A stretch of DNA of 61,153 nt, filler included, from 5 parts of 5 records of this genome joined end to end with filler, not necessarily neighbours in it, one strand, 5' to 3'. Numbered from the whole stretch's first letter, positions 30,277 to 47,920 are shown. The notes: generated from the sequence alone by a model not told the origin. Translations and numbers: made by a program.

Positions 30277-30376
30277 NNNNNNNNNNNNNNNNNNNNNNNN
30301 NNNNNNNNNNNNNNNNNNNNTTAATTAATTAANNNNNNNNNNNNNNNNNNNNNNNNNNNNNNNNNNNNNNNNNNNN
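30277..30376. other. artificial contig spacer
   Basis: N-run + TTAATTAATTAA + N-run. Confidence 0.99.
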
Positions 30377-30541: not shown

Positions 30542-31990
30542 CTAGCGAGAGGGTTTGAACCGGGTGGACACTATCTGGTATCGTCGCATCAGACGCTGCA
30601 GAGCCTGCCGCTCCATTCCGCTGGCAGCGGCGGCATTGGTGACATTGCCTTGGTGCTCGGTGAGTTTATTGGTTATGTAACCAATGGAAAAATGACCGAC
30701 CAGCTCAGCTTTTGCATCGTTATAGGGTGTATGATAATAGGCTCGCAGGTCAGACTCTCCACCTGGGGCCTTTGTTGTCGAGTTGTCGGGGAGAAGAGGT
30801 AACAGATCGTCCATAACGACGTCTCCTTCTGCCGCCAGGAGTACAATTCGTTTAATAGCGTTACGTAGTTCCCTGATATTGCCCTGCCACTCCAACTTAT
30901 AGAGGTGCTGAAGTGCCTCGGCCGGTAAGGACAATTTTTCTCTATCGTACTGCTGTTTGAACTGTGACAGGAAATGGTGGACCAGGAGTGGAATATCCTC
31001 TTTCATCTCTCTTAGGCTTGGCATAACAACGGTTACCACATTCAGTCGGTAAAAGAGATCTTCACGAAATTCGCCAGCCTTAATTTTTGCTTCCAGATCC
31101 TGGTTGGTCGATGCTACTACTCTTACGTTGACTTTTATGGTCTTGTTTTGTCCAAGAGGCTGTATTTCTTTTTGCTGCAACACTCTCAGCAGCTTGGTCT
31201 GAATGGAGACAGGGATGTCCGCGATTTCATCCAAGACAATGGTGGAGTCTTCAGCCTCCAGAAAGAGCCCTTTTTTATTATGCTCAGCCCCGGTAAAAGC
31301 TCCCTTGCAGTAACCAAATAACTCACTTTCCAGGACGTTTTCAGGCAAGGCAGGACAGTTAACCGTAATCAACTTTCGATTTTTACGGCTGCTTAAATCA
31401 TGGAGGGCATGAGCAGCCAGTTCCTTTCCTGTGCCGCTTTCCCCTCTGATAAGCACTGTTGCATCAGTATCAGCCACTCGACACAAAAGATCCAGTGCAC
31501 CTTTGAGCGCAGGGCTTTGACCTATAAATCCTTGAGGAAGGCTGAGGTTTCTCAGGCGTTCTTGGAGCTGTATATTGGTACGGAGCAGTGAGGTGCGTTC
31601 AATGCAGTTAGTCACAACCCTGACAACGTGATCTTTTTCAAACGGCTTTTGCAAAAAATCATAAGCCCCATCCTTCAAGGCCTGAACTGCCATGTCAATG
31701 GTTCCATATCCTGTCATAATTACAACAGAAATGGTTGGGTCGTGCAATCGTACTTTTTTGAGCAGCTCAAGCCCGTCCAAATCAGGCATCTTTATGTCGG
31801 AAACTATCACATCCGGTGAACTTTCAGCCAGCAGTGATAGCGCTATCGTCCCTGAGGAGGCGGTAATTACGTCACACCTGCATTTTTTTTGCAATACCAG
31901 GCGCAACATGGAGACCATGTCGGGTTCGTCATCAACGATCATCACCAACTTACGGTCGTTGTCTTTTGGTGCAGTTTTATTCTCTGTCAT
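30542..31990 (-). CDS. sigma54-dependent response regulator (NtrC family)
   Basis: Receiver SDIKMP, GESGTGKE, GAFTGA, FREDLFYRLNV, C-terminal HTH. Confidence 0.95.
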   Translation of the reverse strand: MTENKTAPKDNDRKLVMIVDDEPDMVSMLRLVLQKKCRCDVITASSGTIALSLLAESSPDVIVSDIKMPDLDGLELLKKVRLHDPTISVVIMTGYGTIDMAVQALKDGAYDFLQKPFEKDHVVRVVTNCIERTSLLRTNIQLQERLRNLSLPQGFIGQSPALKGALDLLCRVADTDATVLIRGESGTGKELAAHALHDLSSRKNRKLITVNCPALPENVLESELFGYCKGAFTGAEHNKKGLFLEAEDSTIVLDEIADIPVSIQTKLLRVLQQKEIQPLGQNKTIKVNVRVVASTNQDLEAKIKAGEFREDLFYRLNVVTVVMPSLREMKEDIPLLVHHFLSQFKQQYDREKLSLPAEALQHLYKLEWQGNIRELRNAIKRIVLLAAEGDVVMDDLLPLLPDNSTTKAPGGESDLRAYYHTPYNDAKAELVGHFSIGYITNKLTEHQGNVTNAAAASGMERQALQRLMRRYQIVSTRFKPSR

Positions 31991-33036
31991 TGCTTGTTCT
32001 TTTGAGAAACAAGGTATTGAAAATAGCGTTGAATGAATTTGCCGGAAATTGTCTCCTGGTTGCTTACTTCTGGGAGGACTAAATTGTTCTGAGGATCTGA
32101 TTCGAAAAGGGCGGAAAATACCTCTTCGGATAATGCGGTCAGTTCATTCTTAATAGCTTCCAGTTCCAACTCGGTTTCACCGCAGTTGGTGCGGCAATGA
32201 AGGGGCCGGAACTGGTGGAGCAGGCATCTATCGCCTTCCCGTAATGGACAGCTTTTTTCGGCGGCAGATCCGGGAGCTCCAGGATTGTCTGGGATGCGAA
32301 TGAGCCCTCCTCCAGCTTCGTCTGCAGTTGTGATGTTTGCTGCAGCCTTTTCGATGACCAGGTTTCTTTGTTCAGAGGAAAGAGCGATATTGACCTTATG
32401 ATTGAGGTAAAGGGCTTCCATGAGCGACAGGTTAAATAATTGAGCGCATTCATTGCTGTCCTTATTGCAGCACTCCTGCCCTTTGCCGCTGAGTTGGGCA
32501 TCGACTCTTTCCAGGAGTTGTTCGTAGCGGGCATAAAAGCTAGTGAGATCTGCACCGGGCCGATTGTCAGCAGAGGGCTCAGCCATTTTGAGTTGGCCTT
32601 CTTTTTTACCGAATTTTCTTAATAACCACCACTGGGAGTAGTTAGTTGGATTAGCCCTGGTTTTTTTGAGCAATTTGCCGGCCTTTTTAAGATTGAAGCC
32701 TCGGCGGAGCATGTAGGCGGTGACAAACGTACCGGTACGGCCAACTCCGAGCTTGCAATGGACAAGGACTTTTTTCCCAAGGTAGACGGCCTCATCCAGC
32801 CATTCTAATCCCTTTTCCATCTGTTCCATCTTGGGCGCAGTTTCATCGGGAATGGGCAGGTAGAAAACCTCAAAACCAGCACCTTCTTCAAGTTCATGGA
32901 GATCGGAGAATTCGCCGCAGAGGTTTACTATGCCGCTGATCCCCTGCTCTTTGATACTGTCGAGATCAGCATAGGACATAGGGGCATGGCCCACTGCCAG
33001 ATAATCAGTTATCCATGTGAGCTTATATGTAGACAT
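31987..33036 (-). CDS. dual-specificity (Cys) phosphatase fused to a YkgJ-like cysteine-cluster domain
   Basis: VHCKLGVGRTG (CX5R); C-terminal ECC..EC..SCPL..RCLLHQFRPLHCR. Confidence 0.85.
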   Translation of the reverse strand: MSTYKLTWITDYLAVGHAPMSYADLDSIKEQGISGIVNLCGEFSDLHELEEGAGFEVFYLPIPDETAPKMEQMEKGLEWLDEAVYLGKKVLVHCKLGVGRTGTFVTAYMLRRGFNLKKAGKLLKKTRANPTNYSQWWLLRKFGKKEGQLKMAEPSADNRPGADLTSFYARYEQLLERVDAQLSGKGQECCNKDSNECAQLFNLSLMEALYLNHKVNIALSSEQRNLVIEKAAANITTADEAGGGLIRIPDNPGAPGSAAEKSCPLREGDRCLLHQFRPLHCRTNCGETELELEAIKNELTALSEEVFSALFESDPQNNLVLPEVSNQETISGKFIQRYFQYLVSQKNKQ

Positions 33037-33105
33037 TACCTTATCCTGTAAAAAACGGTTTGCTGTAATCCAACCGTGTGAAGCTGCAGCAACACTATGT
33101 CGAAC

Positions 33106-35568
33106 TTACCCTTCTTGGGAAAAAGAATATCTTCCGTTATAAAAGTCCTGAACGTATTCGGCAACCATTTGCTGGTCCACTAGTACCATATCCATCAATT
33201 TTGTGGCACCGAGTAAACGGCCAGTCATGTCCAGCTTATCTTTCATGATACTGGCGGGCAGAGGCGGGAGTTTGGCTTCCAGGAGATCGGCTTTTTTGTC
33301 TACGGTAAACTCAAGGCCTTCAAGTACTCCAGCGATAAAATCAATCCGCAGCAGTCTCTGTTCATAGTCACCGCCGCCTCCCGCAAAGCGCAGCATGCAA
33401 TGATTTTCGGCTTTGTGTTCGCCGCACATGACATCAAGCACGGTAAAGTGATAACCAAAGCGGATGTTAAAATGAAGATAATCGGTGCCGATGACTGCAT
33501 AACTGGCAAACGCGAAACTGTCTTTTTTGGGGGGAACACCACCAGCCAATTCAATTTTATCGTATGCTTCCCAGTCAAAGGGTTTTTGTTTCCATTGTAC
33601 GCCCGGATGACTCAACCCTTTCCATACTGCCTGAAAAGGAACCGAGGCGACTTCTTTAAGGGGGATTGATTGCTGTTTTTCGATTTCAGCGGTAAACCCT
33701 CCGCCCACATCAAATAAAAAGACATCCAATGGAACATCTGCTACCAGGCGCAATGCACCTCTGCCCGTTCCAGGTCTGCCTGTGGTAAACATGGATAATA
33801 GTGCTTTTTCATGGCAGAACCTGATGATGTCATGCATGGAGCGGCAGCCTTCAGGGGTGAAGTTTTCCCCTGCTGCATCAACCAATTCCAGCGGAGTAAT
33901 GAATTTCAAGGCTTGTTTGAGAATCAAGGGGTACTGGCCCTGTGAGGCTGCTTTCCTGCTGTCGCTAACCAGGGACTCAATCAATCCTTCATAAACAGCT
34001 CCTTTTCCTGCATCAACGGTCACGGTTATCCCAGCGGGAAAACGATCGCATACATCTGGGATACCTGTAAGGTAAGGCACTCCAAATTCTCGAGCAACAG
34101 TGGCGAAATGGCTGGCGCGGCTGCCTCGCTCTGCCAGAACTGCTGCCAGCTTGTTGATGACCTGCACGTATTCTGGCGGACAGTCACGGGTAACAAGTAC
34201 GGACCCCTCCGGAATATCTTCCAGCAGGTGAGTGCTGTCCAGCTGATATATAGATCCTGCGGAAATTCCGGGTGAAGCCTGTTGGCAGCCATCGAGTAAA
34301 AGTAGGTGATTGTGCTGACTAGATTCTGCAGACTTACTGGAGTCGCTGGAAAGATGTAATGGGCGTGCCTGGAGAATAAAAACCCTGTTTGTGGAATCTA
34401 TAGCCCATTCAATATCCTGGGGGCTGGCAAAAAAGTTTTCGATCTGCAGCCCGAACTGTGAAATTTCTACCGCCTGTTTTTCTGATAAGACCGGGTCTGT
34501 GGGTAATGCGGAAATCAATTGCGGGGGAAGGTCTTTGGTCAACGTATAGGTATCCGGAATTTCCAATCCACTGACCAACTTCTCTCCCAAGCCCCGGACA
34601 GCATGCAGGTGGAGTGTGCTATTCGATTCTTCTTCGTTTATTCCACTGGTGTATAGAACTCCGCTGCACTGGGCTGGAACCATTTCCTGAATGAGTACAG
34701 ACATTGCGGTCTCTTCATCTCCGAGACCGTGACAGATACGATAAAAGAGCGCTTGGCTGGAATATTTTGAGGCAATGACCTTCCTGTAGGCATGGGCCAT
34801 GTCCAGCCGACTTGTATTAAGTATGGTTGTATACTGTCCTGCAAAAGAAAAGTACCCATCCTCGCTGATGGCACTGGAGCGGACCGCCACTTTAATCTGG
34901 TTTTTACCTTCACTGGGCCAGCAGTCATAGGTACTTAACATTGCCCCCTCAATCACCGGTGGTACTTCAGCGCAAAGGATTAGATCCTGTAACCGACGAG
35001 ATGATTCTCTTAGGGATTGCGGGTGATGAATGTCTACTTCGGCCAATAGTTCGTCAAGTGACTGGCGGAGATCGTTGAATTCGATGAAGTAGTGAAAGGC
35101 ACTGGAGGTAATGGCAAAACCATTTGGAACAGGAATATCAAGTTCGTTGTGTAGCATGGCAAGGTTTTTTGCCTTGTTACCAACCTGGTTGTTGTCAGCA
35201 GCAATCTCGTGGAAGGACAGTACAAAGGGAGGGGCAAAGTCTATCTTGGGTGGTGCGAGCAGGAAACGGGTATAAAAATCAAATTTCTTATGATAGCTCT
35301 TGAGGGAAACATAACTGCCAGGACCCATGGTTTCCAGTGCTTCAACCATGCCGAATACCTGGCGGGAAAAGTTGGAAAACCGTTTTCGAATTGCTGCCAG
35401 GTCTTGGGGAGAGCCTCCATGGAGCATATCTTGAAATTCAGCCATTTGTTCGTGGCAGGCAATATCAAAATTTAAGAGCTGCTTGAGGGCTTCATACTTT
35501 TCGCGAAGCATGGTTCCGGGAGCAAATATACGGTAGCTCCAATGCTTAAAAAGTGAATTGAGCAGCAT
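33106..35568 (-). CDS. PEP/pyruvate-binding (PEP-synthase-like) ATP-grasp + phospho-His swivel protein
   Basis: VGNKAKNL, AVRSSA.SED..SFAGQY, QDIEWA, ILQARPL, GSRASHFATVAREFGVP; C-terminus lacks the pyruvate-binding barrel. Confidence 0.88.
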   Translation of the reverse strand: MLLNSLFKHWSYRIFAPGTMLREKYEALKQLLNFDIACHEQMAEFQDMLHGGSPQDLAAIRKRFSNFSRQVFGMVEALETMGPGSYVSLKSYHKKFDFYTRFLLAPPKIDFAPPFVLSFHEIAADNNQVGNKAKNLAMLHNELDIPVPNGFAITSSAFHYFIEFNDLRQSLDELLAEVDIHHPQSLRESSRRLQDLILCAEVPPVIEGAMLSTYDCWPSEGKNQIKVAVRSSAISEDGYFSFAGQYTTILNTSRLDMAHAYRKVIASKYSSQALFYRICHGLGDEETAMSVLIQEMVPAQCSGVLYTSGINEEESNSTLHLHAVRGLGEKLVSGLEIPDTYTLTKDLPPQLISALPTDPVLSEKQAVEISQFGLQIENFFASPQDIEWAIDSTNRVFILQARPLHLSSDSSKSAESSQHNHLLLLDGCQQASPGISAGSIYQLDSTHLLEDIPEGSVLVTRDCPPEYVQVINKLAAVLAERGSRASHFATVAREFGVPYLTGIPDVCDRFPAGITVTVDAGKGAVYEGLIESLVSDSRKAASQGQYPLILKQALKFITPLELVDAAGENFTPEGCRSMHDIIRFCHEKALLSMFTTGRPGTGRGALRLVADVPLDVFLFDVGGGFTAEIEKQQSIPLKEVASVPFQAVWKGLSHPGVQWKQKPFDWEAYDKIELAGGVPPKKDSFAFASYAVIGTDYLHFNIRFGYHFTVLDVMCGEHKAENHCMLRFAGGGGDYEQRLLRIDFIAGVLEGLEFTVDKKADLLEAKLPPLPASIMKDKLDMTGRLLGATKLMDMVLVDQQMVAEYVQDFYNGRYSFSQEG

Positions 35569-35607
35569 AGTTCCTCCTGGAAAAAGGGCAGGTGGCAGAA
35601 ATCTGTG

Positions 35608-36225
35608 TTAGGCGTTTATCTCCTCAACCATGCCTATCATCGGTGATGTTTTTTGAGTTTTAAATTTTTTTAGTAGCGCGGCTGTAATACTCCATAACAG
35701 ATATCCCGTGAGCAGCGAGATGAAGTACCAGAAGACCGCACCGATAAGAATTGGTTCGCCGCTGGTGGAACTGATTTGCATTACATATTCCCTGCCAAAG
35801 AGTCCCTGCATTTTTTCCGGTCTATAATACTCGTTAATAAAAGCGAATACGAAAAATATAGGGAGTACTTTGCGTGCAATACCAAGGAGCAATCCCTCAA
35901 AAAAATAATCGTAATAGGCTTTGTTGAGCTCTGCTTTATCTATGTTGCGTGCCATTCTGCTGCCTTTTACGGTGTCTTCACAACGCATAGCTTCCTGTCG
36001 CAGTTCCAGCCAATGGTTGTAGGTCTTTTCCAGTTCAATATAACGTTTGGTTATAATAAAGCGGTTAAGCAGTTTTGTAATGCCAACTGTGCACACAGCA
36101 AGCAGGGAAATGATTAAAACAGGTCCGAGGAAATGGAGCGGCTGCAGAATAGAGGATAGTGTGTCGCTAATCAGGATGAAACCGATTACCAGGTATTCCC
36201 AAATTGTGTCAAGAACGGCATCCAT
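35608..36225 (-). CDS. membrane protein, DUF106/EMC3/TMCO1-like
   Basis: TM - soluble coiled region - TM (LPIFFVFAFI) - loop - TM with FWYF. Confidence 0.55.
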   Translation of the reverse strand: MDAVLDTIWEYLVIGFILISDTLSSILQPLHFLGPVLIISLLAVCTVGITKLLNRFIITKRYIELEKTYNHWLELRQEAMRCEDTVKGSRMARNIDKAELNKAYYDYFFEGLLLGIARKVLPIFFVFAFINEYYRPEKMQGLFGREYVMQISSTSGEPILIGAVFWYFISLLTGYLLWSITAALLKKFKTQKTSPMIGMVEEINA

Positions 36226-36282
36226 TGAAATACTCTCTTTAATATTTATATGCGGGGCTTGTAAAAGGTTACATAATTAACC

Positions 36283-36350
36283 AGTGTCTGTCCAAAAATG
36301 AGTTTTTGGACAGACACTAACTACTGCCAGGGGAAAGATATCCCCTGGCA
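36283..36350. other. two tandem hairpins downstream of the TauE gene
   Basis: AGTGTCTGTCCAAAAA-tgag-TTTTTGGACAGACACT and TGCCAGGGGA-aagata-TCCCCTGGCA. Confidence 0.75.
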
Positions 36351-36375
36351 GATTGTATCTTCTTGAACTCTTTTC

Positions 36376-38085
36376 CTAGATCCAGATTTCGATCTTGAAA
36401 AAACGGAAAAAGAGGAAGAACAGTGTGATTGCTAAAACAACTTTGAGCTGCATCTCACTGAACATTTTTTGTGCACGACTACCAAGCATACCACCGGCAA
36501 AACCACCGATAATGATAGCGCCTGCAAGAACCCAGTCCGGCCAGTAACCGATCATAACATAGCCCAGGAAAGACCCGATACTGGAAAAGCAGGTTCCAAT
36601 CAGAGAAATAGGCACTGCTACATACATGGGCAATGCACCAAGAGTGGTCATTGCAGGTACCAAAAGGAAGCCGCCGCCAATACCAAAGGAGCGGGAAACG
36701 ATACCGATGAGTACGCCCAGAAATGCAAACAGCAGTGGGTTGATTTTAAATTCTTCACCCCAAAATTTGAAACGGTAATCGGTTAATCCTGTTTTCACCG
36801 GTTCAATGGAACCCATTTCCATGGCTCCGCCGGTTTCTTTGGCTGTTTTAACCGCGGCGTTAAATTTTTGGGTCATGGCCTTGATGTTTTTACGCTTGTT
36901 CATGGCCTTTGGGGTCATTTCCATCAGGGTTTTAACGCCCATGATGACAACCAGAACTGCAAGCCATTCTTTGTATGCCGCCATTGGCAGCATTGCGGAA
37001 ACATATTTACCAAGCCAGATGGAGCCGATGAAGATACCGATACCAAAAGAAATACCAACCGGCCATGCAACACGTTTTTCAACAACCGCAAAGCGGTAAA
37101 AAGAACCGAGCGGGGAGAAAAGGGTCAACGCCATGTTGGAAGGTTTGAGCACGTTAGCAGCATTCACACCAACCGGACCCATGGTGTTGACAACCAGTAC
37201 CTGGAAGGCTGCCATGAGCATACCGCCTGCTGCCCCGATCATGGAAAAGTAGGTACCAACAGCAATAGCACCAATTACGATCCAAAGAGGGTTCATGTAG
37301 CGAAAACCTTTAGACAGCCAGAAGCCTTTGCCTTCCAAGGAAAAAGAACTCGATTGTGCACCGTTGACATACACATCAAAAGCGGTATCAGGAGGGGTAT
37401 GACGGAAGGTCTTGAAGGAGGCCGTAAATTTACCCGTGGCCTTGTCCAAATTGATTTTGGTGCCTTCATCCCAGTAGTTACCGCTGGAATCATCCTGGAG
37501 AACGGTTCTGGAGAAAATAACAATCTTCCCAACTCGGTTTCCTTCTTTAACAATGGTGTTGATACCGTACTTGGATTCGTTGGCCCATTTCAGGAATTTC
37601 CACTGGTCTTCTGTCTTGATAGGACCAAGGCCTTTCTTTGCTGTAGCATCAATGGCATTAAAGTCTTTTTCAAGCAGATAGCTGTAAGTAGAGTAGAGAC
37701 CCTTTGTGCGCCCCTTGCCTAAGAGTACGGAAGGACCACCAAACTTGGTATCATCAACACGCTTACCAAAGGCGGTGGGGTTAGTGGTAAGGACATAGTA
37801 AAGAGGAGGAATGGAAGCATCCATGCCAAAACCTCTTTTCTTGGTTTCCTTGGCAAAGCGTTTTTTCTCATGAGGCATTGTTGCGTCAGCAGGCTTGAAC
37901 TCTTCCTTTTGAGCAATAGCCAGGTATAATTCTTGTCCTGGTTCGATCGCGCCTTCAATGGTGACGGTATCGCCAACTTTACCATCAACAGTTACTTTTG
38001 TTTCGGCAAGTGCCAAGTTGAAGCTCGCCAAAAGAAAGGCGGCGAGACTCATCGCCGTAAGAAACGGGATGCGCATGGTTTTCAT
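36376..38085 (-). CDS. TauE/SafE (TSUP) family transporter with large N-terminal periplasmic domain
   Basis: Signal peptide ending ALA, ~240-aa soluble region, then TSUP motifs IGAAGG and FGIGGGFLLVP; ATG 38085 with RBS AAGGAGA. Confidence 0.88.
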   Translation of the reverse strand: MKTMRIPFLTAMSLAAFLLASFNLALAETKVTVDGKVGDTVTIEGAIEPGQELYLAIAQKEEFKPADATMPHEKKRFAKETKKRGFGMDASIPPLYYVLTTNPTAFGKRVDDTKFGGPSVLLGKGRTKGLYSTYSYLLEKDFNAIDATAKKGLGPIKTEDQWKFLKWANESKYGINTIVKEGNRVGKIVIFSRTVLQDDSSGNYWDEGTKINLDKATGKFTASFKTFRHTPPDTAFDVYVNGAQSSSFSLEGKGFWLSKGFRYMNPLWIVIGAIAVGTYFSMIGAAGGMLMAAFQVLVVNTMGPVGVNAANVLKPSNMALTLFSPLGSFYRFAVVEKRVAWPVGISFGIGIFIGSIWLGKYVSAMLPMAAYKEWLAVLVVIMGVKTLMEMTPKAMNKRKNIKAMTQKFNAAVKTAKETGGAMEMGSIEPVKTGLTDYRFKFWGEEFKINPLLFAFLGVLIGIVSRSFGIGGGFLLVPAMTTLGALPMYVAVPISLIGTCFSSIGSFLGYVMIGYWPDWVLAGAIIIGGFAGGMLGSRAQKMFSEMQLKVVLAITLFFLFFRFFKIEIWI

Positions 38086-38189
38086 ACTGTTATCTCCTTG
38101 TTTTTGTTTGGTGTTTGGTTGCGCATAGGTGTCAGTAGTATTCTTGTGCTTGGCACCTCCTCTACTAAAATTGATGTACATTTATTTAT

Positions 38190-38681
38190 TTAACCTTGTT
38201 TTTTATTTGCTAGCCATGCACCGAAAAAGGTGCCGGAAAGGGCGAACAGTGCGGCCAGTAGGGAGCGGAGGCCGTCTATCAGTGGTTCCCATGGTTGAAG
38301 CACTGCAATGAGTGCACAACCTGTGATAGCCAGTAGAAGAGCTATGCTTGTCAGAGCCATTACTGGACGAGGAAAGCTGCTGCATTTATCACGCAGCCCG
38401 TAACCAGCTGCTGCCCCATTGAAGGCTATTATGCAGGGCAGCAGGATCAGCAGAGCAACGGGGGAGAGCACCATGGAAAAAAATAGCAGTAGAATAACGA
38501 TGCCAACTGCGCCCGTTATAATGCTGTAAAGGTATATGCCTAAAGGGGATAGAAGAAATTGTTTCCATCTCTCCACAGCCACCCTTGCTCCATCAATACA
38601 TATGTCAATCACTGTAACCTCCTGTGTTATCAGTTCAACAGCCAGGCGCAGGTTGAGATGTCGCCTGGGTTGCTTGTTCAT
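38190..38681 (-). CDS. small 4-TM hypothetical membrane protein
   Basis: Four hydrophobic segments; start overlaps the upstream stop. Confidence 0.65.
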   Translation of the reverse strand: MNKQPRRHLNLRLAVELITQEVTVIDICIDGARVAVERWKQFLLSPLGIYLYSIITGAVGIVILLLFFSMVLSPVALLILLPCIIAFNGAAAGYGLRDKCSSFPRPVMALTSIALLLAITGCALIAVLQPWEPLIDGLRSLLAALFALSGTFFGAWLANKKQG

Positions 38682-40351
38682 TTATCGTCTGGTGTCAGGT
38701 CCACAATTCGGGTCGCCCCAACATATTCGCTGCTCGAATATCCGGTGACATCAATCATTTCCCGGGTTAGGTCACCCATTTTTTTCATGTTGGAGATCAC
38801 TAAGTCCATTTCTTCAATCATTTCTGGAGTATGGAGGTCATCTCGTAGCAACTGGGCAGTGCCGAGTGCCGCAAACAGCGGGGTGTTCAGTTGGTGGGCT
38901 GCGGTGCCTGCCATTTCAATAACACCCTGGAGCTTCATCCGCTGCGAATGCTCTTGTTCCAGCAGCACCTGATCTGTGATATCGTTGACAGCCTCAACCA
39001 CAAAATCAACCTGACCATCACCATTAAGGATGGGGGTCAATTGGCGCTCATACCATTTATTCTGCTCATGGTGTTGCTTGACCACGGTGATAGGCTTGCC
39101 TGATGTCAAAACTTGTTCCAATGGGCAATGTTGGGCATTTTCCGCCCGAGGTGGAGAAACAGACCGGTAGGGACGGCCAAGGACATCTTCTTCTGTCTGT
39201 CCGTGTCTCGTAAGAAAATGTTTGTTAGCCATTATGACGCGTTTGTCGGGATCGACTACCAGCAGTTCAACCCAGAGCGAATCGAGGATGGTCTGCAGAA
39301 AACGTTCATGCTCCTCTATTTGGTTGAAAAGCAGGGTGATTTTACGGTAGAGCCTGGCCTTTTCGATGGCATTGCCGCCTTCTTCAGCCACGGTTACTGC
39401 AAAGTGAATATCACTTGCTGAAAAAGAGCGATGGCTGTTGGTGAGCAGCCGGAGTACGCCGATAATTTCCTGGTCGTTTTTAATGGGAACGGCAAGGATG
39501 GATTTTATACCTTCTTCCCTTATCTTGTCGTGATAGTTGACTCTTGGGTCATTGGGTGCGTCATAGATGGCAACCGGGCTTCCTTTGAGTACTTTGAATA
39601 TAGAGTCTTCCCGGTTTATGCTGCCTCTGGTGAGGTACTTTTGAGAAACCCCTGATGCTGCCACTAGTTCCAGTCGATTGGTGGCGGGCTGCAGCAAGCG
39701 GATGGTGCATCCCATGACTCCCATTATTCCAGGGAGTTTTTTCACGATCGCGCCAAGTATTTGGTCCAGATTAAGGGTTGAGTTGACCAGTTGGGAAATT
39801 TCACGCTGGGCTTTAAAAAAAATGACCTGGTTGTTCATTTCCTGGAACATATGACAATTTGAAATCGCTATGCCCACCTGCTCAGCAAGGGACATGGCAA
39901 AATTGATCTCAGGTTGGGAAAATTCACGCAGGTCTTTGGTCAGAAGACGCAGCAATCCAGTTATCTGCCCTTGGAAAATAATGGGCAGGGACATGGCGCT
40001 TTTGACGCCTTCATTGGATATAAACGCGCAGCTGTCATGGTCACAGGTCACGTCAATGTGTTTGCGGGCCGTTGGGCGTCCCTCCATGAGTGCATCCATC
40101 ACCTCTTTGGTATCAATGGTGGAGCGGGAGAGATATTCATCAGATACACCCCAGGCAGCACCCAGGACAAAAATATTGGTCCCGGTATCAAACAGTCTGA
40201 TGGTGGCGGCATCAACGTCGAGCAGGGCAGGGAGGCGTCTGACCACCAGGTCCATAACCTCTTGCGAGGTATGGACCGTGCTGATAAGGCGGGTCACTTC
40301 CTGAAAGACAGTGAGGTAGTCACTTTCTATGTAGGGCCTGGTTGAACTCAT
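38678..40351 (-). CDS. GAF-GAF-PAS protein ending in a HisKA-like helix pair, no ATPase domain
   Basis: Two GAF repeats (KSAMSLPI / KSILAVPI..GVLRLLT), PAS, then AAHQLNTPL and stop. Confidence 0.85.
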   Translation of the reverse strand: MSSTRPYIESDYLTVFQEVTRLISTVHTSQEVMDLVVRRLPALLDVDAATIRLFDTGTNIFVLGAAWGVSDEYLSRSTIDTKEVMDALMEGRPTARKHIDVTCDHDSCAFISNEGVKSAMSLPIIFQGQITGLLRLLTKDLREFSQPEINFAMSLAEQVGIAISNCHMFQEMNNQVIFFKAQREISQLVNSTLNLDQILGAIVKKLPGIMGVMGCTIRLLQPATNRLELVAASGVSQKYLTRGSINREDSIFKVLKGSPVAIYDAPNDPRVNYHDKIREEGIKSILAVPIKNDQEIIGVLRLLTNSHRSFSASDIHFAVTVAEEGGNAIEKARLYRKITLLFNQIEEHERFLQTILDSLWVELLVVDPDKRVIMANKHFLTRHGQTEEDVLGRPYRSVSPPRAENAQHCPLEQVLTSGKPITVVKQHHEQNKWYERQLTPILNGDGQVDFVVEAVNDITDQVLLEQEHSQRMKLQGVIEMAGTAAHQLNTPLFAALGTAQLLRDDLHTPEMIEEMDLVISNMKKMGDLTREMIDVTGYSSSEYVGATRIVDLTPDDK

Positions 40352-40424
40352 TATTATCTCTGTACCGGCAGCATGGATTGCCAATACTGCCGGTATGTTG
40401 AACGGCTTGCGCTAAGAGGGGGCA

Positions 40425-40877
40425 TCATGCACTCTGCAGAGTTACCAGCTGCAGCGCATGGGTTGTACACTTGGCTACACATGCAGGTTTGAGACCTGCA
40501 TCCAAGCGGTCCATGCACAAGTCGCATTTAACGGCTTTGCCTGTATCCGGATTCATGACTGGAACCTCCCACGGGCATGCCTTTTGGCAGGCCATACAGC
40601 CTATGCATTTATCTTGGTCGATATAAACAATACCGTCCTCGCGCTGGATCATGGCATCTTTTGGACAGACCGGAACGCAGAGTGGATCTTCACAGTGCTT
40701 GCAGGCAGAAAATGTGATCTCTGTTTTCGGAATCCCCCCCACCTTTTTTAAAGGAGTGCAGCTGATATCGCAGAGGATTGGGCCTACCGGCAGATTCTTG
40801 TTCACTTTGCAGTGCACCGTACACCCGTGGCAGGCAATACATCTGCGGCTGTTAAGATGAAGCATATATTTTTTCAC
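40425..40877 (-). CDS. 4Fe-4S dicluster subunit (PhsB/DmsB-like)
   Basis: CIACHGC, CKHCEDPLCVPVCP, CIGCMACQKACP, KCDLC..CVAKC. Confidence 0.93.
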   Translation of the reverse strand: MKKYMLHLNSRRCIACHGCTVHCKVNKNLPVGPILCDISCTPLKKVGGIPKTEITFSACKHCEDPLCVPVCPKDAMIQREDGIVYIDQDKCIGCMACQKACPWEVPVMNPDTGKAVKCDLCMDRLDAGLKPACVAKCTTHALQLVTLQSA

Positions 40878-42988
40878 AGTTCCACTCTCCTCTTGGTGTT
40901 GCGGATACTCTTTTTTACATGGACAAAGGCGTCACATAAGTTGACTCCGCCTCCAGCCTGATCCCATTCATCGAGTTTGCCGACCATCAGCTTCTGGTCA
41001 CTGATGCCTGCCATGAAACTTCTGCTCTGGCGTGGGATTTCCTTGCCAAATCCATGGACGGTAAACACCGCTTCTGGATGCACATTATCGGTTACATGTG
41101 CTGCCGCTGTGGCATTGTAAGATTTATCAGCAGAGGAAAGTTCCACTAGGTCCCCTGTCTGAATGTCCATCTTTTTAGCCTGTATGGTATTGATCCAGAC
41201 TGTATTTGTCGGCATCAGCTCAGATAACAACGGGTTGTTGGTGGTGTGTCCCTGGGTATGAACGGCTACTTTGCCGTAAATCAGGCGGAACATGCCTTTC
41301 TCTGGCGATTGCGGAGCTTCGAATGGCTTTAAAGAGGGGAGTCCAGCTTTATCCAGTTTTTCACTGACAAGTTCAATTTTGCCGCTGGGAGTCTTGAATT
41401 GGCCGCTTAGGTTATCGCGATCAAAGAAAACAGGCTCTTCACTTAATTCGACAAACCCTTTTTCGTCAAAGTCGGCAATGGTATACCCGGTGGGCTCAAG
41501 CTGCCAGGCCCAGAGATCATCTATGGTCTTGAAAGGAAAAGTCTCTTCCAGGCCAAGGCGAGAGGCCAGGCCGGTAAAGATTTCATAGGAAGATATGGTG
41601 TCCCATTTAGGTTCTACAGCCTTGCGACGAACTGCCAACCGGGGTTTAAGTCCTTTTTGCTGGACAATGGGAGTATCTCTTTCAAGATAGGTCGATTCCG
41701 GGAGGATAACGTCACTGTACCAGCCGAATTCACTGTAGTTGACATCAATGGAGACCAAGAGGTCGCATTTATCCAGAGCTCGTTTTTGTTGTTCAGGATC
41801 AGGCATGCCGCTGAATAGATCATGCCGCATGGCGATCCAGGCTTTGATCGGGTAGGGTTCTTCTTTGAGCATATTATTGAAAAAAAGGTGTGCCAGCCCA
41901 GGCCCCTTATCAAAATGGTTATACTGCCAGCCAATGCCGTCACCGCGCTTGATGTCTGGTTTGACACAGTCGATGGATCGGATACCCTTTTTGCCGCAAT
42001 CGCCAGCCCCCTTGGGAATGAACAAACCGCCTTTCATCTCAATGTTGCCCATCAGCACATTAAGAATGTGCATGGCGCGGCTTGCGTAAAAAGAGTCTTT
42101 ATAACGGGCCAGATTCCAGCCAGGATGAAAAATCACGCTGGGACGGTCTTCGCCAATCTCCTCCACAAACGCGAGCAGGTCCTTTTCCTTGATATTGCAT
42201 TCCTTGGCTGCCCAGGCTGGTGTGTACGGCTCAATGAAACTGCACAGTTCGTCAAATCCTGTGACATAGTTGCTAATAAACTCTTTGTCGTAATAGCCTT
42301 GCTTGATCACCTGATGGATAACACCGAGTGCTAGTGCATAGTCAGTACCAGGCCGGACCTGGAAAAAACGGGTAGCTTTGGCACCGGTCATGGTCTGGCG
42401 AACATCGACGTAGGTCATGCGACCGCCATTGTCAAGCATATCCAATGTCTGGTGGTTTTCAGCAATACGCAGTGCGGAAAACATGTCGCGCCCGAAAAGC
42501 ACCAAGTGTTTGGCATTCTTTATGTCATAGGCAAAGCCTTTACGACCAACTCCATTAATAGAGAGACTTGCGTGGTGGGTATTTCGGCCGCAGGTGCAGT
42601 CGTGATTGGTGTAGTTGGGAGAACCAAAGGCATGGATAAAGGCTTTGTACATTCCTTGCCAGGGACCGCCGCGGCTGGAAAGCACCACCGATTCCGGACC
42701 ATGCTCATCCTTGATGGCTTGCAGTTTTTCTGCCACATAGTCCAGAGCCTCTTCCCAGCTTGCCTTACGCCAACGTCCGGCACCGCGAGCACCAACGCGA
42801 ATAAGCGGGTGCTGAGGGCGCTGAGTATCGTTAAGCAGGGCTACACCGGCAGAACCTTTGGCGCACAGGGCACCCCCAAGCTGATGCGGGTTACCCTCTA
42901 TCCATGTTACCTGGTTGTCTTCAGACTCCACCCGGATGGGACAGCGAACTGTGCACATCCCACATATGGAGTAAACTGATTGTTTCAT
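40874..42988 (-). CDS. molybdopterin oxidoreductase catalytic subunit (PhsA/PsrA-like)
   Basis: CGMCTVRC..LCAKG Fe-S, HDCTCG Cys ligand region, PGTDYAL, DVILPESTYLER; no Tat signal. Confidence 0.9.
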   Translation of the reverse strand: MKQSVYSICGMCTVRCPIRVESEDNQVTWIEGNPHQLGGALCAKGSAGVALLNDTQRPQHPLIRVGARGAGRWRKASWEEALDYVAEKLQAIKDEHGPESVVLSSRGGPWQGMYKAFIHAFGSPNYTNHDCTCGRNTHHASLSINGVGRKGFAYDIKNAKHLVLFGRDMFSALRIAENHQTLDMLDNGGRMTYVDVRQTMTGAKATRFFQVRPGTDYALALGVIHQVIKQGYYDKEFISNYVTGFDELCSFIEPYTPAWAAKECNIKEKDLLAFVEEIGEDRPSVIFHPGWNLARYKDSFYASRAMHILNVLMGNIEMKGGLFIPKGAGDCGKKGIRSIDCVKPDIKRGDGIGWQYNHFDKGPGLAHLFFNNMLKEEPYPIKAWIAMRHDLFSGMPDPEQQKRALDKCDLLVSIDVNYSEFGWYSDVILPESTYLERDTPIVQQKGLKPRLAVRRKAVEPKWDTISSYEIFTGLASRLGLEETFPFKTIDDLWAWQLEPTGYTIADFDEKGFVELSEEPVFFDRDNLSGQFKTPSGKIELVSEKLDKAGLPSLKPFEAPQSPEKGMFRLIYGKVAVHTQGHTTNNPLLSELMPTNTVWINTIQAKKMDIQTGDLVELSSADKSYNATAAAHVTDNVHPEAVFTVHGFGKEIPRQSRSFMAGISDQKLMVGKLDEWDQAGGGVNLCDAFVHVKKSIRNTKRRVEL

Positions 42989-43036
42989 ACAACTCTCCTC
43001 GTTTTCATTTTCGAATGTGAAAATTGCCGATGACTT

Positions 43037-43396
43037 TTAGCCGGCCAGAACGTCTGTAACTTTTTCCTTGAGTTCACTTATATCAATCGGTTTTACACAG
43101 TATTCACCAGCACCTAGCTCAATCGCGGTTCGCGCTGTTTCAAGGGTAGGGTAGCCGGTCAACATTATTGCTTTTAACTCAGGTTTAAGCTTTTTCATTT
43201 CTTCAAGAACCTGAATACCACTCATTTTTTTCAGCTTAATATCTAGAATGGCAAGGTCGACCTGGTTTTTACCCACGTGGTCGATTGCTTCTTGTTCCTC
43301 TGTGAATGTTTGTACGTTATGGCCTTGTCGGGTAAGTACTTTTTTCACCAGAACCACTGCATCCAGTACATCATCTAGTACGACTATTTCAGCCAT
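43037..43396 (-). CDS. single-domain response regulator
   Basis: VLDD, ILDIKL, LTGY, VKP; no output domain. Confidence 0.9.
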   Translation of the reverse strand: MAEIVVLDDVLDAVVLVKKVLTRQGHNVQTFTEEQEAIDHVGKNQVDLAILDIKLKKMSGIQVLEEMKKLKPELKAIMLTGYPTLETARTAIELGAGEYCVKPIDISELKEKVTDVLAG

Positions 43397-44957
43397 TGTT
43401 ACCTTTCCCCCTGTTGGTGCTGCACTCAGCGAGCGGCAGACGAATATGAAATGCTGTTCCGTTTGTTTCTTTGTGTGTTTCAGGATCGATTATCGGACTT
43501 TCCACTGTAATAGAGCCGCCATGCTCCTGAATAATGCCATAGATGACGGACAGGCCGAGGCCTGTACCTTTACCGACAGCCTTGGTGGTGAAAAACGGAT
43601 CAAATATTTTGTTTTTAATTTCGTCAGGGATACCTGTGCCAGTATCCATGACCGTGATTTCTACAGAGTCTTTGTTTTTATGGGTGGAGATAACTATGCG
43701 GCCGCCACCTCCTTCATCCAGGGCAAAATGGGCATTGTTAAAGAGATTGATAATGACTTGACGAAGTTTTTCTGCATCACCTGTAACCTCTGGCAGCTCA
43801 GGATGAAAGTCGCGTACAACGTGAATTTGCTGGATGTTGAGGGAATGTTCGGTTACGGCTAGCACTTCCTCAATGAGAGCGTTGACATCAAGTGCTGTTT
43901 TGACACTTTCAGCCTGGCGAGAAAATTTGAGCAGGTCGGCAACGATTCTGCGGCATGCTTTAGTCTGCCGCTCCATCACTTCCAGGTTGCTGTGAGCTTC
44001 ACTTCCTTGGTCGTAATCATCCATCATCAATTGAGTGTAGCCAAGGATGATACCCAATGGGGTGTTGATTTCGTGGGCCACTCCAGCTGCCATCTCACCA
44101 ACAGAAGCCATCTTTTCACGATTAATGAGTTGATTGGTAATGGTCTTCAGCCTTGTCATATCCTTGCCGATCCCTTCGCAGCCAACCATGTTCCCACTTT
44201 CATCGTATACAGTATTAGAGGTGAACAGAATGTTACGAGTTGAACCGTCCCGGCCTTTACACTCGATTTCAAGGTCACGGACAAAGCCGTTCTGCTTAAG
44301 CTCATTCACGTACCGCTTACGGTCTTTTTCATTTACAAAAAGATCGAAAAAACTCACTTTTTCCAGGGACTCGTCTATGGCCAGCAGTCGTCTTCCGCTG
44401 CTGTTAACGCTGGATAGATATCCAGATTCATCGCAAAAATATATGATATCATTAGAGTTTTCAAAAAAATTACGGAGCTTTTTCTCTGACTTGGAAAGGT
44501 TGCGGGTTCGTTCTTCTACTATTTCTTCCAAGTTGGTGTTGAGTTTTTTGAGCTGAGTTGCACTGGCAAAAAGCCTGGTGTTGGCATCAGAGAGTTTTTT
44601 GGCTTCCGATCTGATCGCCTTATAAGCATCAAGGCCTTTATGGTAGTAAATGGTTACTGCTGCGGTGGAGATAATTAGCATGGTGTTGAATCCCCCTGAA
44701 TAAGGGGATAGTTGTTTCCAGACGGTGCCATGACCACTGAAGACAAGCAGGATGCGAGCGATGTGGCCAACGCCGCGGGACAGCGAAAAGGCGGCCATTG
44801 CGACGCAGAAGTAAAAGAGAAAGCCCCATATGAAGTTATTGGGCTCTGCTTTTACCAAGACTCTAGAATAACGCAGAGCTAAGAAGGAAAGAAAAATCGC
44901 CAGTCCTGAACCACATATGTCGACTATATTAGCAGGCAAGAGAGGGAGGGTGTTCAT
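43389..44957 (-). CDS. membrane PAS sensor histidine kinase
   Basis: N-terminal TMs, [32 protein letters not shown]. Confidence 0.92.
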
Positions 44958-45421
44958 CTTTCATCCTCCCCTGTTGCATCTTTGCTTAAGGTCCGCAACC
45001 CAATGACCAGAGCCAGCATGGCCGGAACATAGAGGAGATGATCCATTTTGGTGATGTAGTACAACATCTTGATAGGGGTGATAGGCCCTGCTATCCGTTC
45101 GTTCCAACTGGCTTTATCTATGAAATCAGCGGTACTTAGGAATTTGATAGCTTCATGGCCTACCAGTGCCAGTATGTTCCACCCTGCAAATAGGATGCAG
45201 AAGATCTGCAGGTAGTGCCACCCCTTGTTGCTCAGTTCTGGAGTGCGGCGGGTATGCCAGTAGAGATAGATTAATGCTCCAGTGAACAATAGGTGGGACA
45301 TCTGGTGCACATATAGTCCCTCTGGGGCACTATGCGGTTGCAAGGCCCAGGCATGAACAGGGACGAGCAGGAGGGCAACGATCAATAACCCGATATGTTG
45401 GAGGTGTGATAGCATTTTCAT
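44954..45421 (-). CDS. small His-containing membrane protein
   Basis: Signal-like N-terminus ending AWA, TMs with HQMSH, GHE, MDH; start reassigned to ATG 45421 because the longer ORF overlaps the sigma54 promoter. Confidence 0.7.
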   Translation of the reverse strand: MKMLSHLQHIGLLIVALLLVPVHAWALQPHSAPEGLYVHQMSHLLFTGALIYLYWHTRRTPELSNKGWHYLQIFCILFAGWNILALVGHEAIKFLSTADFIDKASWNERIAGPITPIKMLYYITKMDHLLYVPAMLALVIGLRTLSKDATGEDER

Positions 45422-45445
45422 AGGAGTCTCATTGGTTGTAGTTAA

Positions 45446-45462
45446 AGCATTATTTATGCCAG
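45446..45462 (-). promoter_or_regulatory. sigma54 (-24/-12) promoter of the 15-kb cluster
   Basis: Minus strand CTGGCATAAATAATGCT; GG-GC spacing 12 bp. Confidence 0.75.
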
Positions 45463-45580
45463 GCATCGAGTTTGGGTCGCGCGTTCTGTATTTTAAACGA
45501 AAAATCTGGTGGTTACATGAAATTATTATTAAGAGGCCGGTTGTTGTTGTTCTGAACCTGTTGGTGCGGTCACGGAAGTG

Positions 45581-45790
45581 TGCAACCTAAATGTTGCGGT
45601 TTGGGTCGGCTTGCAAGGGATAATTTGGATATATCCTTCGTAAACTGGCGAATGACTCCTGTTTATGAAGCAAAAAAGGGGGAAAAAGGAGTGCAACTTT
45701 TTAGATGCACTTTTTTTTAAGTGTAATCCTAGGCGATTACTTCACATTTTTTACTTGGATGACCACGATGAGTGCAACTAACTTGTTGCA
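45581..45790. promoter_or_regulatory. three TGCAAC-N6-GTTGCA palindromes (candidate enhancer sites)
   Basis: TGCAACctaaatGTTGCG 45581-45598; TGCAACtttttaGATGCA 45692-45709; TGCAACtaacttGTTGCA 45773-45790. Confidence 0.75.
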
Positions 45791-46969: not shown

Positions 46970-47920
46970 TCAGTTATCGGAAAATTTATTTTTAGCTTGA
47001 TAGAAAAGGCCTCTGTCTTGCCGAACAGCTTCAATTTTTCCTTCCTCTTCAAGTGATCCGAGATATTTATTAATCTCGTTGACATGGGACCCCAGTATGC
47101 TAGCTAGATCGTCGAGCGTGCAGGGCCTCCGCATGACTGTTTCGACAATGGCAGATTCCATATCGTTTCGATACGAACTGACACCTTTTCGCTGGGGAGC
47201 TGCTGCAATAATCTCAACTTTACTAGGTTTGAAAAAATCAGCGATGCGCTGCATCGTTTCCTGGCCTGCAGCATGAATACCTGAAATTACTCCTGGACGA
47301 TCAAGGGTGTTAAGCTGTATCAGGTCTGGATTGATTTTTTGCACTGCGGCTTTTAAGAGTGCAAGTTCCTGGGGGGTGTCATTGGATCCTGGCAGTACGA
47401 AAATTTCCAGGTTGAAAATTCCTGTAAATTCATTGCGGAAGGATGCAAGGCCTTCAATATAGTCCTCGGGAGTAATTGATGCATGGGGTCGATTAATGGT
47501 CTGCAGTGCTGAGATTGATGCTGCGTCTAGCGATGGCATAACAAGATCTGCATGAAGCAGAGCTTTTCTCACCTCTTTTTGACCCAGAAGAGTACCGTTA
47601 GTGAGGACGGCGATGGACACATTGGGTTTTTTGTTACGGATAAAGGTAAGAACTTCTCCTATCCGTGAGTTGAGTGTAGGCTCTCCAGCTCCTGAAAATG
47701 TTATGTAGTCTGGATCAGGGTTGTTTTGAAAATAATCTTCAAGTTCTTTGAGAACCTCATCTACAGGAATATAATCCTTGCGTTCCATGGTGAGGTTGGT
47801 TGTTTCTCCGCACTCACAATAGATACAATCAAGGGTGCATGTCTTGTGAGGAACAAGATCTACGCCCAGGGAAATACCGAGTCGCCGTGAGGGCACAGGC
47901 CCAAATAAATAATTATACAT
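46970..47920 (-). CDS. radical SAM protein with C-terminal HTH-like region
   Basis: FGPVPSRRLGISLGVD, CTLDCIYC, FSGAGEPTL, VLTNG; ATG 47920. Confidence 0.88.
   Translation of the reverse strand: MYNYLFGPVPSRRLGISLGVDLVPHKTCTLDCIYCECGETTNLTMERKDYIPVDEVLKELEDYFQNNPDPDYITFSGAGEPTLNSRIGEVLTFIRNKKPNVSIAVLTNGTLLGQKEVRKALLHADLVMPSLDAASISALQTINRPHASITPEDYIEGLASFRNEFTGIFNLEIFVLPGSNDTPQELALLKAAVQKINPDLIQLNTLDRPGVISGIHAAGQETMQRIADFFKPSKVEIIAAAPQRKGVSSYRNDMESAIVETVMRRPCTLDDLASILGSHVNEINKYLGSLEEEGKIEAVRQDRGLFYQAKNKFSDN

Follow-up and report, generated by a model that had tools for sequence, protein, structure and literature searches.

Agreed marker enzymes for sulfur disproportionation and thiosulfate turnover in sediments are still wanting, and recent papers highlight a PhsAB-like enzyme that is soluble, treating its two genes as standing on their own. 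What, then, would regulate such an enzyme and supply it? This question is raised by a window of 61,153 nucleotides (nt), the whole stretch of DNA that we analysed, joined from five contigs. It holds a cluster of 12 open reading frames (ORFs), g01 to g12, all on the minus strand (30542-45466), in which a PhsAB-like pair, g04-g05, is accompanied by a TauE-type permease, two-component regulators and a dikinase/phosphatase pair. We give moderate credence to the reading that this is a Desulfobulbales operon of the sigma-54/NtrC type, encoding a soluble PhsAB-type enzyme and a dedicated TauE permease, most likely for thiosulfate or a related S-S compound. The core of enzyme, transporter and activator, controlled by sigma-54, is well founded, and our best guess for the substrate is a sulfur oxyanion, most likely thiosulfate. 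The initial annotation had described a self-regulated module for sensing, importing and converting a sulfur oxyanion. Enzyme, TauE-type transporter and regulators are indeed co-conserved; the plain Phs/Psr label, import rather than export, and the claim of one transcript are less secure.

The features of the cluster, with domains called by Pfam and NCBIfam scans of all 12 proteins, are:

45773-45790, no strand: dyad 1, TGCAACTAACTTGTTGCA, 0 mismatches to TGCAAC-N6-GTTGCA
45692-45709, no strand: dyad 2, 1 mismatch to TGCAAC-N6-GTTGCA
45581-45598, no strand: dyad 3, 1 mismatch to TGCAAC-N6-GTTGCA
45447-45461, minus: sigma-54 -24/-12 element, TGGCATAAATAATGC, with GG-N10-GC spacing
44954-45421, minus: g01, small membrane protein with signal peptide, no Pfam family
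43389-44957, minus: g02, membrane sensor histidine kinase (transmembrane region, PAS, HisKA, HATPase_c)
43037-43396, minus: g03, single-domain response regulator (REC)
40874-42988, minus: g04, PhsA/PsrA-like molybdopterin catalytic subunit of 704 amino acids (aa), lacking a twin-arginine translocation (Tat) leader
40425-40877, minus: g05, iron-sulfur (FeS) electron-transfer subunit, 150 aa, four Cys groups, signal peptide absent
38678-40384, minus: g06, GAF-GAF-PAS-HisKA protein without HATPase_c
38190-38681, minus: g07, membrane protein of 163 aa, no family matched
36376-38181, minus: g08, 601 aa, periplasmic Ig-like domain of ~290 aa plus TauE/TSUP permease
36283-36351, minus: two strong stem-loops in the g08-g09 spacer, minimum free energy -54.2 kcal/mol, z -7.2
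35608-36225, minus: g09, membrane protein of 205 aa
33106-35568, minus: g10, dikinase-like protein, PPDK_N ATP-grasp plus PEP-utilizers swivel-His domain
31987-33036, minus: g11, Cys-based dual-specificity phosphatase with a Cys-rich C-terminal domain
30542-31990, minus: g12, NtrC-type sigma-54 activator (REC, AAA+ with GAFTGA, HTH_8)

Spacers are short or overlapping (the starts of g02 and g05 overlap the ends of g01 and g04, respectively), except for the 150 nt between g08 and g09. The 12 co-oriented genes and the list of domains given for them earlier are borne out by these ORF calls and scans.

Matches to the sigma-54 consensus over the whole window are at chance level (54 observed versus 47 expected), so the case for the promoter rests on conservation. 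The element, CTGGCATAAATAATGCT at 45447-45461, falls within the longest g01 ORF, ~25 nt before the likely true start, which is probably the MKML codon at 45421. Among 50 related loci, 46 have a sigma-54 element no more than 250 nt ahead of g01, compared with 1/50 in an opposite-strand control, and it is nearly missing ahead of g10 (1/32), g11 (0/39) and g12 (0/51). When g01-g02 are divergent, as in Desulfurivibrionaceae-type loci, the element precedes the genes for TauE, REC and the g04-g05 pair (7/8 of the matches ahead of g08); in loci without g01-g02 it precedes g03.

The three dyads sit 120-330 nt upstream and are the sole copies with at most one mismatch in the 61-kb window. Across the related loci (1.37 Mb), 63 of 87 dyads fall within 500 nt upstream of g01, a region of 25 kb making up 1.8% of the sequence, and their distances upstream of g01 are conserved; at least one dyad is found there in 37 of 50 loci and at least two in 20 of 50. 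Judged from sequence, element and dyads together are laid out like a sigma-54 promoter that depends on an activator. In the present genome g12 is located downstream of this promoter, and a transcript extending that far would make g12 autoregulated. How far the transcript extends is a separate matter. The g08-g09 spacer contains a strong hairpin (11-20 bp), of varying sequence, in all 30 loci examined, which may set different levels for the genes on either side as an intercistronic stabiliser or attenuator. In Desulfocapsa-type loci, g10-g11-g12 stand upstream of the sigma-54 promoter and have no such promoter of their own. Simple sigma-70 and terminator scans of the sequence gave no enrichment over shuffles.

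The composition of the cluster was compared among relatives obtained by scanning one genome per species with g04. The scan returned 99 relatives, of which 80 were kept; they come from Desulfobulbales, Dissulfuribacterales, unclassified deltaproteobacterial metagenome-assembled genomes (MAGs) and one Thermodesulfatator MAG. Relatives lacking a Tat leader, with 41-95% identity, are found in 99 of the 401 genomes sampled in the phylum, at least 61% identity being reached in 16 genomes. Among named isolates, Desulfogranum marinum DSM 2058 is the nearest, with an enzyme 95% identical and an identical gene order. The cluster is also present in records named Desulfogranum, Desulfopila and Desulforhopalus, which are sulfate reducers.

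Where the full 10-kb flanks around g04 are present (44 loci), g05 adjoins g04 in every case (44/44). The other genes are present at frequencies of 40/44 (g03), 38/44 (g08 and g12 each), 37/44 (g02), 34/44 (g01), 32/44 (g10 and g11 each), 29/44 (g06), 20/44 (g09) and 12/44 (g07). The blocks g01-g02-g03, g04-g05, g08-g09 and g10-g11-g12 are arranged in three or more orders across Desulfobulbales; the Desulfocapsa-type order, for example, is g10 g11 g12, promoter, g01 g02 g03 g08 g09 g04 g05. Because the genes are retained despite this shuffling, we consider the blocks functionally linked. The survey of synteny that had been suggested thus finds the enzyme together with TauE, kinase, REC protein, NtrC-type activator and sigma-54 promoter. 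The loci most distant from this one (Dissulfuribacterales, Thermodesulfatator) show g04-g05 isolated amid housekeeping genes; therefore, the enzyme pair is the older part, and the regulatory and transport genes are a Desulfobulbales addition.

The g04 protein contains the Molybdopterin (145.7 bits), Molydop_binding (47.6 bits) and N-terminal Fe4S4 (41.6 bits) domains, all over their Pfam cut-offs. Its best NCBIfam model is PhsA at 544.1 bits, the next model scoring 209 bits. Among solved structures the best relative is Thermus PsrA (PDB 2vpw; E = 6e-102, 345 bits), followed by acetylene hydratase at 175 bits. The alignment to PsrA begins at chain residue 38, beyond the PsrA leader. In g04 the FeS motif starts at residue 9, which excludes a Tat leader, and a longer ORF is impossible. 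A membrane anchor subunit, either NrfD-type as PsrC or cytochrome-b-type as PhsC, was not matched among the 12 cluster proteins. With neither leader nor anchor, the g04-g05 enzyme is predicted to be soluble and cytoplasmic, and the cytoplasmic location given in the initial annotation is upheld.

Cys133 of g04 is kept in 17 of 17 cluster enzymes and occupies the column of Cys173 of Thermus PsrA, which we take to be the Mo ligand. Two other columns, those of His145 and Arg332 of Thermus PsrA, are instead Arg106 and Trp291 in all 17 cluster enzymes; we take them to be active-site residues, no confirming paper having been found. Five related genomes each also encode a PsrA/PhsA-like paralogue bearing a Tat leader, and the His and Arg columns are retained in 5/5 of these. 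Because of the replacement by Arg and Trp, the substrate of g04 is possibly different. The 17 cluster enzymes group in a single clade of the phylogenetic tree (support 100), which long branches connect as sister to the Tat-bearing paralogues (support 91, with a warning from the tool about this join). By score, PhsA/PsrA are the nearest relatives, and the tree of cluster enzymes and paralogues places the former in a clade of their own. The label 'Phs/Psr-like' holds in so far as nearest relatives go and fails as to the PhsA cut-off, the C subunit and the two changed active-site columns.

The transporter g08 matches TauE (PF01925) over residues 302-592 with 99.1 bits, compared with a gathering score of 32.6; its true start is probably the MKTMRIPF codon near 38085. 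The periplasmic domain has no Cys and is predicted to fold as a generic Ig-like sandwich with helices (predicted local distance difference test, pLDDT, 77.3). Foldseek returned nothing for this fold at E <= 0.001, and in structure alignments the best Z was 5.3, with SoxYZ tied among many Ig folds at Z 4.7. No direct Pfam match was found for the N-terminal domain; profile comparison with Alph_Pro_TM (PF09608) by hhalign gave a probability of 75.5% and E = 2.4e-5 over just 58 columns. A separate Alph_Pro_TM gene adjoins a plain TauE gene in related cassettes, and there is moderate support for regarding the g08 N-terminal domain as a fused and diverged Alph_Pro_TM. In Hydrosulfovibrio ferrireducens (L079:7632-9473), the cluster TauE gene is split into two ORFs, one of 477 aa (periplasmic domain and first half) and one of 129 aa (second half). 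The g09 gene invariably follows g08. It had been described as DUF106-like, and a match to EMC3_TMCO1 (DUF106, PF01956) does span most of its length (30-172 of 205 residues), but weakly and below threshold (E = 0.071, 13.3 bits versus a cut-off of 27.1). Small proteins of no known family beside TauE in other cassettes have no similarity to g01, g07 or g09.

Expression and genome data bearing on such enzymes have been published, and the statements that follow refer to the available parts of those articles. Desulfolithobacter dissulfuricans has PhsAB without subunit C (PMC9751629), and Desulfobulbaceae that are close to cable bacteria encode only Phs/PsrAB (PMC13047784). In Dissulfuribacter thermophilus S69T, a cytoplasmic PhsAB-like pair rose in thiosulfate disproportionation (log2 +2.45 and +3.51), and the rise was specific to that condition relative to H2/sulfite (PMC13490349). 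The same study lists, for thiosulfate disproportionation, a 'Phosphoenolpyruvate synthase' (DITHS69_1988, log2 +3.40), a 'transmembrane protein co-occurring with TauE' (DITHS69_1989, +1.79) and TauE (DITHS69_1990, +1.56), and its authors interpret DITHS69_1988 as gluconeogenic. One UniProt accession, that of the 'PEP synthase', appears there as DITHS69_1988 in Table 2 and as DITHS69_1161 in section 3.2.1. A Dissulfuribacterales genome examined here has TauE, Alph_Pro_TM, a g10-like gene, REC, kinase and sigma-54 activator in one row. Because this other genome of the order carries a g10-like gene in its TauE row, we think that DITHS69_1988 is a g10-type protein.

Several points weigh against a thiosulfate operon as we read it. 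The 544.1 bits of g04 are below the NCBIfam PhsA equivalog cut-off of 694, a value reached in 0/5 related genomes checked, and two of the active-site columns are changed throughout the clade. The cluster encodes no electron donor or acceptor partner, and no biochemical assay of any member of the g04 clade was found. According to the available text of PMC9751629, PhsAB had had no functional analysis, and the two PhsA-like proteins of Desulfolithobacter were scarce and changed little between thiosulfate disproportionation and sulfate reduction. TauE-type proteins carry the name of exporters, and export of a product would suit this better than import. DITHS69_2028 and DITHS69_1988 are presumed orthologues of g04 and g10, and the 'PEP synthase' carries two locus tags. 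Finally, the hairpin after g08 and the separate placement of g10-g12 elsewhere leave a single transcript unproven; of the proposal that one promoter serves 12 genes, the conserved sigma-54 promoter is upheld and the single unit is putative.

Much of this would also suit an enzyme with another substrate, such as polysulfide or persulfide sulfur, trithionate or tetrathionate arising inside the cell as side products when sulfite is reduced, or an oxyanion of selenium or arsenic, with the permease acting as a detoxifying exporter. We regard this alternative as unlikely. It would account for the active-site columns, which differ in 17/17 cluster enzymes from both Thermus PsrA and the Tat-bearing paralogues, for the long separate branch of the g04 clade, for the score under the PhsA cut-off and for a permease family (Pfam TauE) named for export. 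The Desulfolithobacter expression that is not thiosulfate-specific fits it too, and the available parts of PMC13047784 and PMC12998232 hold that the substrates of Psr/Phs enzymes are not predictable from sequence. By contrast, the PhsAB-like proteins of Dissulfuribacter rose specifically in thiosulfate disproportionation compared with H2/sulfite (PMC13490349, available part), and no genes for handling arsenic or selenium are indicated among the cluster domains in Pfam or NCBIfam. We retain thiosulfate as the most likely substrate.

How the operon would be switched on is suggested by the sensor and relay genes. In all 50 g01 sequences, H30, H39, H43, H89, H128, E34 and D127 are invariant; judging from the hydrophobic segments, these residues would all face the periplasm. 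The g01 gene always directly precedes and overlaps the kinase gene g02, whose product has no large periplasmic domain of its own, and g01 is a probable co-sensor of this kinase. The invariant residues suggest a metal-type site that would sense the signal for g02. A role of g01 as a di-haem cytochrome-b anchor was also considered and set aside, because g01 always accompanies the kinase rather than the enzyme. Residues D8, D9, D52, T80 and K102 are invariant in the REC protein g03. The g06 protein has HisKA alone and ends after it, the next gene overlapping, and its orthologues are equal in length; it is a putative His-phosphotransfer or phosphatase module. By analogy only, the layout resembles a relay of the Spo0F/Spo0B type. 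The activator g12 scores 104 bits for REC, 224 for Sigma54_activat and 19.6 for HTH_8 (under the 22-bit cut-off), and contains GAFTGA.

The remaining genes, g10 and g11, form the most novel part of the cluster. The g10 protein matches PPDK_N (234 bits) and PEP-utilizers (60.7 bits), and His487 in its swivel domain is invariant in 28 of 28 sequences. This kinase module lies between a conserved N-terminal part of 115 residues and a C-terminal domain of 286 aa with the invariant signature RFGYHF...RFxGGG. Solved phosphoenolpyruvate (PEP) synthases align with the first two g10 domains, and the best NCBIfam model, PEP synthase, gives 280.5 bits versus a cut-off of 598. Pfam scans found no PEP/pyruvate-binding C-terminal domain in g10 and no match to the C-terminal domain that it does have; the predicted fold of the latter (pLDDT 73.8) had no Foldseek match at E <= 0.001 (best VIA-align Z 5.9), and a protein atlas returned only the protein's own kind. 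A protein of 392 aa consisting only of the N- and C-terminal parts is encoded beside a g11-like phosphatase gene in Dissulfuribacterales, so the kinase module is an insertion into an independent unit. This short form is found at L151:16344-17519 (plus strand) and also in L138, G407 and G144, adjoining the g11-like phosphatase. A search for shorter proteins with the g10 C-terminal domain yielded mostly contig-end fragments; one protein of 427 aa (P0079) joins the domain to a Fis-type HTH and may be an assembly artefact.

The phosphatase g11 scores 50.6 bits for DSPc in Pfam (cut-off 33.5). Its HCx5R loop and general acid (H93, C94, R100, T101 and D64) are invariant in 43/43 sequences, and the four Cys at its C terminus are conserved in 36-37 of 37. 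Compared with CxxCxxCC (PF03692), the C terminus of the copy in this cluster gave no match, that from L134 reached 24.8 bits (cut-off 23) and that from L151 E = 0.0083. The two genes are adjacent in the 31 loci having both (g10 is listed in 33 loci and g11 in 38), and they are naturally fused in L131 (7013-10789, plus strand; 1259 aa), which marks them as a true pair; the kinase/phosphatase pair of the initial annotation is confirmed by both observations. The fusion gene is preceded by a HAMP-PAS kinase gene and by a REC gene whose product is 62% identical to g03. A CheX-type phosphatase gene follows on the opposite strand.

The C-terminal domain of g10 defines a family detected in 153 of the 401 sampled genomes, and a single genome can hold six or more matches. 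REC, kinase or activator genes lie within ~3 kb in 15 of 20 regions around g10 paralogues, regions that were picked by hand and are non-random, and are lacking in the other 5; usually a single-domain REC gene is directly next to the g10-type gene. We infer an enzymatic role for g10-type proteins, coupled to receiver proteins. A predicted complex of g10 with g03 scored 0.16, compared with a mark of 0.32, and is uninformative in either direction. The extra phosphorylation layer that had been perceived in the cluster is thus real at the level of genes, and belongs to a large, undescribed family tied to two-component signalling. A recurrent cassette in L140, L145, L132, L146 and L151, free of the molybdoenzyme, comprises TauE (~310-360 aa), Alph_Pro_TM, a dikinase-like protein, REC, kinase and sigma-54 activator. 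In L139, L151 and L152 a gene for a calcineurin-like phosphoesterase is nearby.

Our tentative suggestion is that g10 and its paralogues, with the ATP-grasp and swivel-His module set into a novel N+C domain, constitute an unrecognised class of signal-transduction enzymes in Desulfobacterota, partnered by a stand-alone REC protein and opposed by a Cys phosphatase that bears a metal/FeS-type domain; in this cluster they would gate a TauE-type carrier of sulfur anions and a cytoplasmic thiosulfate-reductase-like enzyme. If true, they would provide a second phosphorylation currency beside His-Asp relays. If the dikinase family is a signalling device, a new component of two-component signalling would exist across the whole phylum.

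The wide occurrence of this family admits a further explanation, in which the signalling cassette (TauE-like and Alph_Pro_TM-like proteins, dikinase-like protein, Cys phosphatase, REC, kinase and sigma-54 activator) is primary, the phsAB-like genes were acquired as one of its targets in Desulfobulbales, and the TauE-like protein is a sensor or regulated channel. Its occurrence without the molybdoenzyme in the five loci just named favours this, as do the number and spread of g10-type genes, the signalling genes around 15 of the 20 chosen paralogues and the isolation of the enzyme pair among housekeeping genes in distant lineages. The paralogue regions, however, were hand-picked, and in loci L072-L079 TauE adjoins the enzyme pair even without g10 and g11, behind a sigma-54 promoter that precedes TauE, REC and the g04-g05 pair; a transporter-enzyme pair fits this better than a pure sensor. 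We consider the cassette explanation quite improbable. It is highly improbable that g10 is simply a PEP synthase of gluconeogenesis, and that it and an unrelated phosphatase, g11, lie in the cluster by chance: the best NCBIfam models for g10 are indeed PEP synthase (280 bits), solved PEP synthases match its first two domains and PMC13490349, in its available part, takes a probable g10 relative as such an enzyme, but the score falls far short of the 598-bit cut-off, the PEP/pyruvate-binding domain is replaced by a conserved 286-aa domain without a Pfam or clear structural match, g10 and g11 are adjacent or fused, a short form without the kinase module exists, and the family is multi-copy per genome.

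Returning to the favoured reading, a sigma-54 operon for a soluble PhsAB-type enzyme and its permease, the parts could work as follows. Kinase g02 and its His-rich partner g01 would sense a signal at the membrane, and phosphate would pass to the REC proteins g03 and g12-REC, with g06 serving as a gated relay or phosphatase. Phosphorylated g12 would then bind the three TGCAAC-N6-GTTGCA dyads and open the -24/-12 promoter. Inside the cell, the most likely role of the g04-g05 enzyme would be to cleave or reduce thiosulfate or an S-S compound close to it; the g08 permease would carry the substrate inward, or a sulfite or sulfur product outward; and g10 and g11 would act as an opposed phosphorylation pair tied to a REC protein. 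The parts of this model that we infer are what is sensed, how phosphate is passed on, which substrate is used, which way transport runs and what g10 phosphorylates; gene content, conservation, promoter and dyads, the lack of leader and anchor, and the g10-g11 pairing are observed.

That a cytoplasmic enzyme of this kind goes with disproportionation has been proposed before (PMC9751629, PMC13047784, PMC13490349). What is new here is the regulatory wiring around this published candidate disproportionation enzyme: the sigma-54 promoter, the dikinase/phosphatase pair and the TauE-phsAB link go unmentioned in the available parts of the three articles. The open-access literature searched contained no relevant prior account of the extended cluster or of the dikinase/dual-specificity phosphatase/REC family, and a paper on the Desulfovibrio vulgaris sigma-54 regulome gave no relevant match to the terms searched. 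The cluster offers a testable context in the cultured relative D. marinum DSM 2058: a defined promoter carrying activator sites, a sensor and a permease of its own, and an accessory kinase/phosphatase pair. The 'PEP synthase' of the proteomics work may be a regulatory dikinase linked to TauE, in which case those data would be reinterpreted.

The surroundings of the cluster in the window are delimited by the joins between contigs, each a linker of the form 44N-TTAATTAATTAA-44N:

8643-8742, no strand: contig-join linker, 44 N + TTAATTAATTAA + 44 N
21442-21541, no strand: contig-join linker, same form
30277-30376, no strand: contig-join linker, same form, marking the end of the contig bearing the cluster
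55121-55220, no strand: contig-join linker, same form

The cluster contig therefore covers 30377-55120, with 165 nt between the g12 stop codon and the contig end. Because it ends just past g12, genes at lower coordinates are not neighbours of the cluster. G+C content is ~27-37% in the first two pieces (1-21441) and ~39-54% in the remaining ones, a contrast by which the joined record may combine contigs from different organisms. At the start of the third piece, a protein of 370 aa (21844-22956, minus strand) matches DUF2117 with 320 bits, a family labelled 'uncharacterized protein conserved in archaea'. On the cluster contig, just upstream of the cluster, lies a second sigma-54 system (46970-54649). 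Its genes encode a radical SAM protein, an activator whose REC domain is reduced to a remnant, a sensor kinase resembling Tll0287 and a membrane protein of 584 aa of the YeiH type (Cons_hypoth698). A -24/-12 match with one mismatch is located at 54635-54649, ~96 nt before the last gene of this system. Of its genes, only the radical SAM gene also adjoins the cluster in D. marinum.

Comparison with known systems places the cluster as follows. PhsABC of Salmonella and PsrABC of Thermus thermophilus (PDB 2vpw) belong to the same branch of molybdopterin oxidoreductases as g04 and share with it the N-terminal FeS Cys motif, the Cys in the Mo-ligand column and a partner with four Cys groups; unlike them, g04-g05 have neither Tat leader nor anchor subunit, and the B subunit is just 150 aa long. 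The cytoplasmic PhsAB-like proteins of Dissulfuribacter, Desulfolithobacter and Desulfobulbaceae likewise have two subunits, ~700 aa and no Tat leader or PhsC, an enzyme from a Dissulfuribacterales genome (L067) is 63% identical to g04, and the role proposed for them is thiosulfate cleavage in the cytoplasm, as proposed here for g04-g05. In those orders, however, the pair is isolated among housekeeping genes, whereas this pair is embedded in a conserved sigma-54/two-component/TauE/dikinase cluster. In systems combining TauE/SafE (TSUP) with Alph_Pro_TM the partner is a separate gene, while g08 seemingly has it fused at the N terminus. With NtrB-NtrC, AtoS-AtoC and ZraS-ZraR the cluster shares a kinase, a REC-AAA+-HTH activator with GAFTGA, and a GG-N10-GC promoter with upstream dyads; it differs in adding the stand-alone REC protein g03, the ATPase-less g06 and the His-rich g01. 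As in PEP synthase, pyruvate phosphate dikinase (PPDK) and rifampicin phosphotransferase, g10 combines a PPDK_N ATP-grasp with a mobile domain carrying a conserved His, but it lacks the PEP/pyruvate TIM-barrel, has new N- and C-terminal parts, and belongs to a multi-copy family placed by REC genes. Plants, too, set a Cys-based dual-specificity phosphatase against a swivel-His dikinase, in the form of phosphatases of the SEX4/laforin type and glucan water dikinase. No carbohydrate-binding module was detected for the g10-g11 pair, nothing points to a glucan as its substrate, and its context, in contrast to that of the plant enzymes, is two-component signalling and sulfur metabolism.

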